Below, piece by piece: positions 59,612 through 64,000 of a stretch of 64,000 bases of DNA; positions within the stretch are counted from its first letter, which is position 1, and every line of letters begins with the position of its first letter. The position numbers and the translations under genes were made by a program. The notes beneath the pieces were generated by a model. That model made no database searches, had not been told where the DNA came from, and saw nothing but the letters and a program-made list of their open reading frames with translations. Source of the DNA: Bdellovibrio sp. (GTDB lineage: Bacteria > Bdellovibrionota > Bdellovibrionia > Bdellovibrionales > Bdellovibrionaceae); the NCBI GenBank assembly GCA_036676395.1, contig JAKFCY010000002.1, positions 1,216,001 to 1,280,000 on the forward strand, given 5' to 3'.

Positions 59612-59685
59612 GGTGACGTGGCCGAGGGGTTAGGCACGGCTCTGCAAAAGCTGTTACGGGGGTTCAAGTCCCTCCGTCACCTCCA
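59612..59685 (+). tRNA. tRNA-Cys(GCA)
   Basis: Acceptor stem GGTGACG/CGTCACC, anticodon arm CGGCT-CTGCAAA-AGCTG, GGTTCAAGTCC T-loop, U73 discriminator and encoded CCA. Confidence 0.96.
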
Positions 59686-59955: not shown

Positions 59956-60672
59956 ATGCGTGATCATAGTTTTTTAAAGTTCGAAAAGTTTGCTACTAGA
60001 AATCTAAGTCATTACTTGCCGCATCCAGTTAAGCTTAAGTCAAACGATGGTGTTCTTTTGAAAATATTCTTATGCCGCATTGAAATCATTTTTTCCGAGA
60101 GGAGAGATTCGATACTTCTTTTTAGAGCGGTATTGTTTGTAATATTTTGGGGTGTTATTTCGTCTGTTCTCCTGATCATAATAACAGACCAGACGAGCTT
60201 TTTGATGGCGCTCAATAATTTATATAGTTATATAAAATTAAATACTGCTCAAACTTTATTTGTGATGGCGGCCTCAATTTCAGCAGTATATTGGAATTTA
60301 AGTTCAAGGTATGGGTCGCAATGGCAATACCTTGCCGAGCTATATAATAATATTTTTATAGAAAAAGTAGGCGAAAAAGATAAATTTGAAATCTTATATC
60401 AAAAAACGACTTTGTGCTTAGACTTAATCGATTTGGATTTCTGGCATCACAAATCGTTTAGCAAGATGTTCGCATTTATCTTAGAAGATGCATTGGAGTA
60501 TTGTTACGAAAATTATCCAAAGGAAGAATTTGGTGTTTTTAAATTGAATCGCTCTGCTTTTAGCCATGTTCAAGATATTAAAAAAGGTCGTTTGGATGTT
60601 GTATCGGCGAAACTGATGATTTCTCGATTGCAAAATGATCTTGAGATGCAAATCGCAAACAGTGAAGTCTAA
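59956..60672 (+). CDS. Hypothetical membrane protein (2 TMs plus helical C-terminal domain)
   Basis: 238-aa ORF with two hydrophobic segments and no recognised motif; start uncertain. Confidence 0.55.
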   Translation: MRDHSFLKFEKFATRNLSHYLPHPVKLKSNDGVLLKIFLCRIEIIFSERRDSILLFRAVLFVIFWGVISSVLLIIITDQTSFLMALNNLYSYIKLNTAQTLFVMAASISAVYWNLSSRYGSQWQYLAELYNNIFIEKVGEKDKFEILYQKTTLCLDLIDLDFWHHKSFSKMFAFILEDALEYCYENYPKEEFGVFKLNRSAFSHVQDIKKGRLDVVSAKLMISRLQNDLEMQIANSEV

Positions 60673-60973: not shown

Positions 60974-63900
60974 GTGAAAATAGTTATAATTTTTATTTTA
61001 TTATTTAGTGCAACTGTAAAGGCGCAAAGTCCGGCTGCTTATTTAAGTATGTATCCTGATGATGAACTTTGGCAGGATTGTATTTCAACTTTTATGGATA
61101 ACTGGGTTCCAACGACCGATCCAAACAGCGATCAGCACTACATCACACCTCGCGCCAGAAGAAATACGGTATGGGAGCCCGAAATTTTTGCGATAGAATT
61201 AGGTAGCCAATATATGACTCCGAAAGGCGAAGACCCAGATAACTACTCTATGTTTGGCCAGCTTTGTTGGCATGATAAAACTAATTACCCAACAAGTGCA
61301 GATTATAGCAGCTCAAGTATAAAGCCAAAAGATTTACGACCTAATGCCTGCAACAAGGTTCCTGGTAGCGTCATTGATATTGAGAAAAGAACAGTTTCGG
61401 AAAACGTTCCAATCGAGGGTACGTCTTACTTCTTAAATTATAGCTCTGAGTATAATCCCAATATCAACTTCAATCGTACATACAAAGATCAGTTCAATTT
61501 TCACAAAAATATCTATTCGGGATATAAATTTGAAATTACAAATTCCTCTAGTCAGACTTTACAGTCTGTTAGTTATACTGCAATTGCACCATTTGCTTTT
61601 AGTCCTAAGCATGTAATCCCATTGAACGATTTCACATCTGGAACTTATACATCCAAGGTCGTAGTATATGCTTCTCTCATGACTAACATCATTGATGCTG
61701 TTGCAGGATATTGCTATTTAGAATACGAGTATATTGATGAAGAATTAGTTGTGACTGAGAATTGCAGTCGAAAAAATGGTCGTACTGCATACTTCAATAT
61801 GCCTTTAGAATTTAGAAGTGAAACTCTAGTGCTTTATAAACCCGAGGTTTGGGGACTTCATGGATGGACTGTTTCTGTCCATCATTACTTTGATCGTGAA
61901 ACTAAATCACTTTTCACAGGTGATGGTGAAAAAATCCAGTATACAACCTTTAAAACTATTAGTGATGCGACTTTGGGTACAGTCGATGTTCTAATCAATA
62001 AAAATGACGAAGATGAATTATTTATCTTTGATTCTAATGGTCGTCATTTAGAAACTCGTCATGTAGTTTTCGGATATATAATTCATAAATTCGCATATGA
62101 CGGAAATAGCAGACTTACATCTATAACAGATCGATTTAATTCTTCTACAACATTTACGTACAGTGGTTCTAACTTGCAGAAAATAACTTCCCCTTATGGG
62201 GTTGAAACTAATTTTACTGTTAGTTCGAATCGTATTACAAAAGCCACTGATCCAGAGAATTTTGATTACGATATGTCGTATGATAGTGGAACTTCTTTAC
62301 TTCTTGCTTACACACCCCCAACAGGGGTAGTAACCACATTTTCGTATAACAGCGACGGCGAGTTCTTGCAAGAATCTAAAAGTAGTGGATTGTTACAATC
62401 GATTGCGCAAAGTATCGCAAATGGATTTTTAGAGTTAACGAACAGTCTAAATTTTGGAGTTGATCGGCATGTTCAAGTTATTCCGACTGCAACTGGTGTA
62501 AAAACTAACTTAGTATCAAATGACAATCTAATTTCACAAGTCGAAAAGTCATACAGTGATAACATCACTCAATTTAAATACAATCAAGACATAACAACAC
62601 AGTATTTTACGCCTAGTGCTGAATGGGGAAGTGATAGATTGCTCATTGATCAAAGTGTCCAGGCAGTTACTGAATCTGGTCAAAACGTAAGTGATTCAAC
62701 CCAATATAGTGAAGCTAGAACCTACACTTCGAGTAATGTTTTAAAGCCTGTAAACTATAGTAATTCAATTACAACAGGTGCTGGTGGGATATTATCCAAC
62801 GCTTACACGAAATCTAATACGACACTAGTATCGACGGATATTCTAGGGAACGTAACAACTACAAAATTTAGTGCATCAGGGGTGATTACTCGAATCAGTG
62901 GAACGGACAAATATCCTGTTGATTTTGAGTACGATACTGCAGGACGTTTAACTAAGGCGAAAAAAACAAGCACTTATTACGAAACCTACACATACGATAC
63001 GTATGGGTACTTAGCGACGATCAATAATAGTAAAAGTCAGTTGACTCAATTTGTTCGAAATAAAAAAGGACAACTTTTACAAAAAATACTTCCGAATTCA
63101 GAGGCGATTAATTATGAATATACTGACGGTGGAGAAGTTAAAAAGATCACGGCTCCAAATGGTCAGGTTCATCAATTTTCGATGAGCTTAGGAGATTACA
63201 TCACTCAAATGATTTCTCCCGCAAGCAAAACGATAACGTATGGCTATGATAGTGATAAAAGACTTTCTACGGTAACGAAGCCCAGCGGAAAAGCCTTAAC
63301 TTTCAATTACGAAACTGATAGAAACGTTTTAGCTGATGTCACAACAGCGAGCGGAACTGTAACTATATCACACGATATTCGGTCGCGAGTTGCTTCCGCA
63401 ACATCAATTGATGATATTCAAACAGATATCACGTGGGCCGCAGACCAAGTGCAATCACAGACTTGGTATGACAACGGAACTTTGATTGCGACGCTTTCAA
63501 ATACTTTCGCAACAGACCAGTTTAAGCTTAAAGAAATATATTTAGATAACTTCCTAATTGCAGACTACACATATTCAAGTGGAGTATTGGCAGGTATTTA
63601 TAATCTTGGCATTTCATATAGTCATAGTTTTTCAACTTACAATCACACCCAAACTGTAAACGGAAGCGGAATTTCTATTTCATATTCGCAAATAGATGGA
63701 TCTAGTCAACCGGCACAAGTGGTTAACGGCACTTATTACGATAGCTCATCAAATCAGATCGATGTATCAATACGTCGTAATTATGATAATTTTGGTCAGG
63801 CCACTTCTTTAATATCTACAAAATTAAACCAAAGCACTGGCTTGTATGATGGTTACTACACACTTACAACGGTATATGATTCGAATAACAGGCTAACGCA

Positions 63901-64000
63901 AGTTACTCGTGTTAGAAAAAAATATGTTAGTGGTGTTCTAACGAATTCTACAGATTTTGTTAATAAGTATACATTTCCTTCTAACTCAAATAACAATATA
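60974..64000 (+). CDS. Secreted teneurin-like YD/RHS-repeat protein, 3'-truncated by window edge
   Basis: GTG after GGGGAG; signal peptide MKIVIIFILLFSATVKA; open for 1009 codons to the edge. Contains ENVPIEGTSYFLNYSS, GLHGWTVSVHHYFD...LFTGDG, ELFIFDSNGRHLET and YD repeats (YDTAGRLT, YDTYGYL, YDSDKRLS, YDSNNRLT). Confidence 0.85.
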   Translation, partial: MKIVIIFILLFSATVKAQSPAAYLSMYPDDELWQDCISTFMDNWVPTTDPNSDQHYITPRARRNTVWEPEIFAIELGSQYMTPKGEDPDNYSMFGQLCWHDKTNYPTSADYSSSSIKPKDLRPNACNKVPGSVIDIEKRTVSENVPIEGTSYFLNYSSEYNPNINFNRTYKDQFNFHKNIYSGYKFEITNSSSQTLQSVSYTAIAPFAFSPKHVIPLNDFTSGTYTSKVVVYASLMTNIIDAVAGYCYLEYEYIDEELVVTENCSRKNGRTAYFNMPLEFRSETLVLYKPEVWGLHGWTVSVHHYFDRETKSLFTGDGEKIQYTTFKTISDATLGTVDVLINKNDEDELFIFDSNGRHLETRHVVFGYIIHKFAYDGNSRLTSITDRFNSSTTFTYSGSNLQKITSPYGVETNFTVSSNRITKATDPENFDYDMSYDSGTSLLLAYTPPTGVVTTFSYNSDGEFLQESKSSGLLQSIAQSIANGFLELTNSLNFGVDRHVQVIPTATGVKTNLVSNDNLISQVEKSYSDNITQFKYNQDITTQYFTPSAEWGSDRLLIDQSVQAVTESGQNVSDSTQYSEARTYTSSNVLKPVNYSNSITTGAGGILSNAYTKSNTTLVSTDILGNVTTTKFSASGVITRISGTDKYPVDFEYDTAGRLTKAKKTSTYYETYTYDTYGYLATINNSKSQLTQFVRNKKGQLLQKILPNSEAINYEYTDGGEVKKITAPNGQVHQFSMSLGDYITQMISPASKTITYGYDSDKRLSTVTKPSGKALTFNYETDRNVLADVTTASGTVTISHDIRSRVASATSIDDIQTDITWAADQVQSQTWYDNGTLIATLSNTFATDQFKLKEIYLDNFLIADYTYSSGVLAGIYNLGISYSHSFSTYNHTQTVNGSGISISYSQIDGSSQPAQVVNGTYYDSSSNQIDVSIRRNYDNFGQATSLISTKLNQSTGLYDGYYTLTTVYDSNNRLTQVTRVRKKYVSGVLTNSTDFVNKYTFPSNSNNNI

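Follow-up and report, generated by a model that had tools for sequence, protein, structure and literature searches.

Locus and gene

The gene described here lies at the edge of a 64,000-nucleotide stretch of the Bdellovibrio sp. assembly GCA_036676395.1 (contig JAKFCY010000002.1, positions 1,216,001 to 1,280,000 of the forward strand), hereafter the window, and encodes a teneurin-like RHS protein, P0001. Its reading frame begins with a GTG at position 60974 on the plus strand, a few bases 3' of a GGGAG, and stays open for 1,009 codons up to the window end. An earlier reading of the window alone (the original prediction) had noticed a frame of more than 1000 codons that was missing from the open reading frame (ORF) track. 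That frame is real, and its absence from the track is likely due to its 3open flag. On the same contig another 1,002 bases follow beyond the window before the frame stops at extended coordinate 65002, so that the full protein has 1,342 aa and six cysteines (C36, C98, C126, C247, C264 and C1288). Extending the contig, a step the original prediction had recommended, also brought to light an RHS core, a C-terminal extension and a downstream candidate immunity gene, encoding P0002. The features of the locus are as follows.

60974..64000, plus strand: in-window part of the P0001 gene, codons 1-1009 of 1,342 (whole gene L001:1974-6002; ORF calling, genome contig)
60974..61024, plus strand: predicted Sec signal peptide, residues 1-17 (sequence and hydropathy)
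61025..61363, plus strand: N-fragment, residues 18-130 (phmmer, alignment, models, PMC13018210)
61364..61933, plus strand: FN-plug, residues 131-320, with plug motif 1, an FN3-type sandwich and the GW..HH..GDG motif (profile, models)
61928..62014, plus strand: 29-residue link, residues 319-347, at the propeller's place (phmmer, motif spacing, profile)
62015..64000, plus strand: YD/RHS shell, residues 348-1009 in the window and on to 1178 beyond it (Pfam PF05593 and PF25023; model and fold searches)
Up to extended coordinate 64507, plus strand, past the window: remainder of the shell
64508-64741, plus strand, past the window: RHS core, residues 1179-1256 (R1215, D1228, D1252, L1256)
64742-64999, plus strand, past the window: tail of 86 aa, residues 1257-1342 (sole Cys C1288; basic module 1303-1334)
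65002-65805, plus strand, past the window: P0002, a Sel1-repeat gene of 267 aa that overlaps the P0001 stop; candidate immunity gene (L001:6002-6805)

The locus is covered without gaps by contigs of runs X1 and X3, from two studies that may both be this DNA's own source. The short junction between FN-plug and shell is spanned by an X4 contig as well, and relatives have the same short junction as P0001. The junction is therefore not an assembly artefact.

Domain architecture and fold

The nearest solved sequence to P0001 (E 1e-51) is BiTLP of Bacillus inaquosorum (9PT5/9IFO), a teneurin-like protein (TLP) with an FN-plug at residues 673-928, an NHL propeller at 929-1255 and a shell at 1256-2139 (PMC13018210, cited here, like the other papers, from the available portions of its text). 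BiTLP is cleaved between G723 and S724 and again after L2144, and a solved disulfide joins its C719 to C2216 of the tail, a bond reported as a surprise in this one protein (PMC13018210).

P0001 starts with what reads, by eye and by hydropathy, as a Sec signal peptide (MK, a hydrophobic stretch, then A-T-V-K-A with Q as the next residue), in agreement with the original prediction. A hydrophobic N-terminal stretch is present in 38/41 of its full-length relatives. Between signal peptide and plug lies a variable domain of about 110 aa, predicted to be alpha/beta and holding C36 and C98, whose residues gave no Pfam match, PF25020 included; neither TTR nor TIP is seen there. This Cys-containing region had been called unique, a label that does not survive, as C36 is invariant in 32/32 rows of alignment A3. 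In an AlphaFold model of residues 18-420 the first FN strand is predicted at about 111-114, N-terminal to the predicted cleavage site between G130 and S131, which agrees with the topology of the teneurin FN-plug (PMC5851990). C126 is the counterpart of BiTLP C719. The models place an FN3-type sandwich carrying C247 and C264 at about residues 166-289, and residues 166-287 match fibronectin 3T1W with a Z of 7.7 and a root-mean-square deviation (rmsd) of 2.2 over 78 residues, a middling score when taken alone.

The two FN-plug motifs and the shell-entry motif noted earlier all occur in P0001, with exactly 29 residues lying between GDG (316-318) and ELFIFD (348). The pattern goes beyond a chance resemblance, being backed by phmmer and by profile alignments. 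Pfam and NCBIfam searches found RHS/YD repeats (PF05593), TEN_YD-shell (PF25023) and the Rhs-associated core TIGR03696 (1179-1256, E 1e-21), bearing out the YD repeats of the original prediction, and no NHL family anywhere in the chain. The AlphaFold model likewise lacks a propeller, and TEN_NHL matches in the host genome are confined to two distant ORFs. The core is bipartite with the conserved Arg, comprising R1215, D1228 (in DPID, not DPxG) and D1252 (DPDG-L).

Alignment to BiTLP locates the missing piece. With phmmer, residues 122-159, 279-336 and 330-1265 of P0001 correspond to BiTLP 715-751, 877-933 and 1258-2153, the first block scoring below zero on its own, and the alignment skips BiTLP 934-1257, which by the published domain borders is the NHL propeller (PMC13018210). 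A profile built from 10 NHL-less relatives covers BiTLP 716-929 continuously, the FN-plug (E 1.9e-26), and picks up again only 8 profile positions on, at BiTLP 1268 (1268-1345); it also finds the FN-plug of Drosophila Ten-m (E 4.7e-7).

Structure searches, also recommended by the original prediction, rank teneurin and TLP structures above the Rhs proteins of type VI secretion systems (T6SS). A model of residues 110-1309 (29 sequences; predicted local distance difference test score, pLDDT, 83.1; predicted template modelling score, pTM, 0.79) matched 9IFO by Foldseek with a template modelling score (TM) of 0.77 (E 8e-61), metazoan teneurins with 0.69-0.74 and T6SS Rhs structures with 0.36-0.50, and VIA superposed it on BiTLP over 950 residues (Z 35.2, rmsd 2.5 Å). 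The model of residues 18-420 (pLDDT 84.0), whose fold matches span its residues 91-403, reached Z 20.5 over 257 residues against 9IFO and Z 9.6-11.5 over 154-161 residues against T6SS Rhs proteins. Because the latter align across the same plug strands, the short plug motifs are general RHS features and not diagnostic by themselves, and the FN sandwich, as modelled, is the TLP-specific part. The assignment to the TLP type rests on this sandwich and on shell geometry. By sequence and predicted structure, P0001 is a TLP-type RHS shell that keeps the FN-plug and lacks the NHL propeller, as the original prediction had proposed. Neither of the outcomes named there as refuting it, a generic RHS structure without FN-plug or an NHL propeller at another place in the chain, was observed.

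Set beside BiTLP, P0001 shares the FN-plug, the YD shell, the bipartite RHS core with identical R/D/D/L spacing, the plug Ser at the N-terminal cleavage site, the C719 counterpart, a small variable tail, a downstream candidate immunity gene and a signal peptide. It is, however, 1,342 aa long against 2,237 aa, with the 29-residue link in place of a propeller of about 330 residues, and only the domain of about 110 aa with its predicted Cys pair where BiTLP carries TTR, TIP and an Ig adhesin array. Of the published defining features of TLPs, the FN-plug, YD shell and bipartite core are therefore found in P0001 and NHL and TTR/TIP are absent (PMC13018210); we consider that P0001 likely works like a TLP all the same. 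Metazoan teneurins (6FB3, 6FAY, 8FIA) share the fold of FN-plug and YD shell, but P0001 is without their NHL, TTR, EGF repeats, transmembrane helix, ABD and Tox-GHH, and retains an autoproteolytic motif that mammalian teneurins lack (PMC5851990). T6SS Rhs effectors (RhsA 7Q97, Tse5 8CP6, Tse15 8UY4, RhsP 8H8A) have in common with it the YD shell and RHS core, a variable tail that is encapsulated, an immunity gene alongside (in P0001 a candidate) and the plug strands, whereas P0001 has a signal peptide rather than PAAR/VgrG adaptors, together with the FN3 sandwich. No PAAR or DUF6531 match was obtained for P0001 in Pfam.

Distribution and relationships of propeller-less capsules

Relatives of P0001 are 1,320-1,410 aa long and 33-70% identical to it. 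The family was matched in 12/41 related genomes, and named records with relatives are mostly Pseudobdellovibrio, Bdellovibrio and Bacteriovoracaceae, that is, Bdellovibrionota, which lie outside the six phyla named in the TLP survey (PMC13018210). That survey required FN-plug, NHL and shell, and reported TIP in 96% (PMC13018210); requiring all three domains made it blind to NHL-less forms. In a draw of 301 genomes from the phylum, 38 match at E <=1e-15, among them 26 of the 37 in the host's own family; most of these matches extend across the junction, in ORFs 1,200-1,400 aa long, and a few are full TLPs, breadth outside Bdellovibrionota being under-sampled. In the genome-contig search a single-protein query was without a match and an alignment query gave relatives.

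Sorting 291 entries by sub-profiles gave 56 with FN and without NHL (FN+/NHL-), 7 with neither (FN-/NHL-), 18 with both, 2 intermediate and 208 other. Removal of 7 duplicates leaves 49 of the FN+/NHL- class, with many members in Bdellovibrionota. At the junction, the NHL-less classes show a gap of 15-36 profile-relative residues, versus 343-398 in TLPs. In shell-only trees, shells with and without NHL are interspersed, some of the doubly reduced forms sit among TLPs, and at least 3-4 changes of the NHL label are required on well-supported branches; these are unrooted FastTree trees and so give no direction to ancestral versus derived NHL states. No description of NHL-less TLPs was found in a literature search that covered few subscription papers and included the available text of PMC5851990 and PMC6425310.

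The natural NHL-less and FN-less forms suggest that propeller and FN domain are each apparently dispensable for a toxin capsule. P0001 had been described as a minimal propeller-less capsule; propeller-less it is, but relatives without both domains show that it is not minimal. Proteins without FN and NHL (P0014, P0015, P0024, P0026, P0029, L022, L143-L145 and L150-L156) keep the plug motifs and an odd-Cys tail, and some FN-/NHL- forms carry other domains upstream.

The host genome encodes a second NHL-less FN-plug capsule of 1,325 aa (L025:10198-14175, minus strand, G000:C3), followed by an orphan RHS core-tail module (L025:6253-7305, minus strand) and small genes; the tails of both have one Cys each. 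A 2,880-aa Ig-rich YD protein (L030:2537-11179, G000:C2) has a TEN_NHL match, lacks the TLP plug motifs by sub-profiles and represents a different RHS architecture.

Directly upstream of the capsule, the subclade closest to P0001 has a separate gene that is Ig-rich and ends in W-x-Y-x-E-C (L017:3-2762, L019:2-2188, L021:927-2264, L032:4986-6602, L035:4225-6582 and L031:1-1911). The same subclade has one extra shell Cys in a TNC/SNC motif, and the Ig-rich gene is upstream in 5/5 loci with both motif and context. P0001 and L129 have neither the gene nor the shell Cys, P0005 and P0006 (no context) are without the shell Cys, and the Ig-rich gene was not found in the host genome. Gene and capsule may together form a split TLP, with an adhesin stalk disulfide-linked to the shell.

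Swapped tails and a Sel1 partner

The original prediction placed a C-terminal toxin beyond the window. An extension of 86 aa does lie there (9.3 kDa; isoelectric point 9.9), with a Gly-rich hydrophobic stretch, C1288 and the basic module 1303-1334; its toxicity is suggested by its genetic setting. Between P0001 and six relatives the core is 66-87% identical and the tail only 12-22%, and L147 and P0015, 99% identical across 1,149 residues, have different tails. A hypervariable C-terminus after a conserved carrier is a feature of RHS polymorphic toxins. Identity between P0001 and P0006 falls from 77% in the shell to 26% in the N-domain and 21% in the FN sandwich, and this faster divergence fits exposed recognition parts.

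The module has the motif H-x6-S-x4-H...D-x-GGEK-x-D and spans about 32-45 aa. A metagenome scan gave at least 85 relatives among at least 597 pattern matches, of which 80 were kept, all with the module (80/80). Among the matches listed, to which the counts in this paragraph refer, H1317 is conserved in 81/81 rows and S1312 in 78/81; D1327, GGEK and D1334 are present in 79/81, these being partly selected by the search pattern. Many modules stand at the ends of RHS proteins, after RHS cores. The next ORF is BLAST-similar to P0002 at 43 of the 77 loci with a called downstream ORF, some of them near-duplicates, and loci without a P0002-like gene have mostly smaller, unrelated partner families.

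P0002 consists of Sel1 repeats (E 2e-40, Pfam/NCBIfam) and is a candidate for the cognate immunity protein. By eye it is without a signal peptide, pointing to a toxin target in the cytoplasm; from the module's charge and its His, Asp and Glu residues we would guess that the module acts on nucleic acid. The module gave no Pfam, NCBIfam or PDB match and no usable one in ESM Atlas and plasmid searches, which is not proof of novelty, and a full-text search for GGEKGD returned no paper. The available text of PMC3482391 mentions Sel1 solely as repeats. Two non-Sel1 downstream families, each mostly of 160-200 aa, recur at nine loci (L049, L053, L059, L062, L097, L099-L101, L106) and seven loci (L068-L070, L084, L102, L111, L116), and are candidate alternative immunity proteins.

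Cysteines of plug and tail

A Cys stands no more than 9 residues before the plug [G/A/N]-S site in 49/49 FN+/NHL- proteins. In P0001 the spacing of C126, G130-S131 and R1215/D1228/D1252/L1256 is the same as in BiTLP, and C1288 is the sole Cys of the tail. The number of tail cysteines is odd (1, 3 or 5) in all 39 callable FN+/NHL- tails, which belong to 29 unrelated tail families, the other 10 of the 49 being truncated; several tails terminate in a short appended Cys motif. Of 61 Rhs controls flagged for DUF6531, the tail could be called in 38, and 21 of these were odd (Fisher p 9e-6 against 39/39, kin not being independent in any of these parity statistics). Tails of FN-/NHL- proteins were odd in 6/6 and those of canonical TLPs in 6/7 of this first set.

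The pattern recurred in a held-out set from the later phylum genome search. From 40 fetched loci, 4 were dropped as more than 95% identical to earlier proteins and 2 had no automatic tail call (by eye, one has a single tail Cys and the other ends inside the core); odd counts were found in 33 of the remaining 34, two of which are identical. A Cys before the D-P-V motif of DUF6531 gave no signal as a predictor of an odd tail in 14 typable proteins.

Odd tail parity is most simply read as a Cys kept spare for the plug. By analogy, the patterns suggest that BiTLP's single disulfide represents a family-wide tether between N-fragment and toxin. A literature search for a published general tether returned only the BiTLP paper and one contact-dependent inhibition (CDI) redox preprint, judged on their available text.

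Proposed mechanism and alternatives

Sequences and models establish the domain order, the missing propeller, the intact RHS catalytic spacing, the interchangeable tails and the adjacent Sel1 gene. On this basis we propose, with a probability of roughly 0.7, that P0001 is a polymorphic toxin, antibacterial and exported by Sec, with a C-terminal cargo that after cleavage would stay disulfide-tied to a cleaved N-terminal fragment. Sec export and oxidative folding would pair C36 with C98, C247 with C264 and C126 with C1288. BiTLP-like self-cleavage after L1256 and between G130 and S131 would then yield three pieces, of which the 13-kDa N-fragment would remain docked by way of the first FN strand. 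The likely target binders are the FN sandwich and the N-domain, as the most variable exposed parts. When the N-fragment is pulled, the plug would open and the 9-kDa tail would be dragged out on its tether, to be freed by reduction. The cytoplasm of the target is where the basic module would likely act, with nucleic acid its most probable substrate; in the producer, the cytoplasmic P0002 would neutralise the tail. The T6SS marker PF05943 (TssC), the only one searched, was not found in the host genome, which is 99.3% complete. Given the three secretins present there, the capsule may take a type II or pilus route.

Several observations weigh against this proposal, beyond the non-independence of kin. 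Cys parity is silent on pairing partners, and the C126-C1288 bond could not be placed in the model since residues 1228-1309 have pLDDT below 50. One of the seven canonical TLP tails has zero Cys, the held-out exception L148 ends in a 20-aa stub without Cys, and in a few held-out proteins, such as L161, no plug Cys was seen near the called site. A same-toxin control was weak and underpowered (odd in 3/3 versus 10/20, p 0.23; 57/80 loci untypable). P0001 departs from the module consensus at the near-invariant positions 1320 and 1323, about a third of the module loci, and L047, have non-Sel1 neighbours, and the activity of the tail is a guess, given that the module matches no family.

The same capsule and toxin could also use the plug-tail disulfide for storage or folding alone, with release by shell opening or proteolysis and no pulling. 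The parity data indeed show a spare Cys rather than a pulling mechanism, and the plug strands shared by T6SS Rhs shells, together with the lack of parity bias in tails of DUF6531-type Rhs proteins, indicate that release without a tether is possible. Yet the odd tail count persists where both FN and NHL are gone (6/6, and 13/13 in the later set), and we regard this version as unlikely, if worth serious attention. Less probable still, and doubtful on present data, is a role in predator-prey or kin contact, as an adhesin on the surface or a capsule for signalling, the tail being a non-toxic peptide or decayed toxin. Teneurins are adhesion receptors, the Bdellovibrio RHS protein Bd0109 has been linked to pilus regulation (PMC3818213), and a short module without a known fold, off consensus at two positions in P0001, would suit this view; but polymorphic toxins are what one recognises in tails swapped on a conserved core, a tightly coupled downstream gene and an identical tail type that recurs with Sel1 partners on unrelated RHS carriers, and several TLP tails inhibited E. 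coli (PMC13018210).

Finally, P0001 could be an Rhs protein of the generic kind that carries an unrelated Ig-like insert, its teneurin likeness stemming from shared RHS plug strands. T6SS Rhs structures do align over the 154-161 residues of plug and entry region, and the FN segment alone has no significant Pfam match, PF24329 being unmatched. This account is largely refuted by the family profile, which reaches the FN-plugs of both BiTLP and Ten-m, by the whole-shell TM of 0.77 to 9IFO against at most 0.50 to T6SS Rhs, and by the intermingling of NHL-less and NHL-bearing shells in the tree, and we find it scarcely credible.

The tethered-toxin reading of P0001 leads to a wider proposal, which we hold at about even odds. 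The 2026 TLP paper described the superfold organisation as invariant and the delivery and release of TLP toxins as unknown (PMC13018210). We propose that the superfold is instead a plug-sealed shell with optional NHL and FN, repeatedly gained or lost, and that the fixed element across the bacterial TLP lineage may be a disulfide rip-cord, every tail having been selected for one spare Cys that bonds the cleaved N-fragment. TLPs would then be toxins of the AB type, set free by a pull on a variable N-domain that binds the receptor; predatory Bdellovibrionaceae would widely deploy a stripped-down version of them, here with a previously unnamed toxin module of about 35 residues and Sel1 immunity. 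New here are the Cys before the plug Ser in all 49 FN+/NHL- proteins and the odd-Cys tails, and the mode of release that they suggest.

The natural propeller-less and FN-less forms bear directly on the claimed invariance of the superfold. The sequence rule that nearly all swapped tails have one Cys to spare turns a one-off disulfide in BiTLP into a family-wide release hypothesis, which would offer a testable answer to how cargo leaves such shells, and P0001, at 147 kDa, is a simpler construct than BiTLP. Further additions are a candidate toxin-immunity family and what is likely a means of competition for predatory bacteria.

Genomic surroundings

One further feature was called 5' of the capsule gene:

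59612..59685, plus strand: tRNA-Cys (ARAGORN)

This tRNA is a possible insertion site of the capsule locus; no att repeat was found, the 3' end of the tRNA having no second copy in the genome. The tRNA and the lower GC content of the capsule region would suit an integrated island; against it stand the missing att repeat and a third-position GC (GC3) resembling that of neighbouring genes. Between tRNA-Cys and the capsule gene, a stretch of 31% GC encodes a 238-aa predicted membrane protein without a family match (window 59956-60672, plus strand). The genes just 5' of tRNA-Cys are presumably xerD-like and comM-like. Elsewhere (G000:C2, extended coordinates 71086-76137 and 81329-88516, plus strand) are very large proteins of 1,683 and 2,395 aa with signal-peptide-like starts, whose C-termini we take to resemble intramolecular-chaperone tail-fibre domains.

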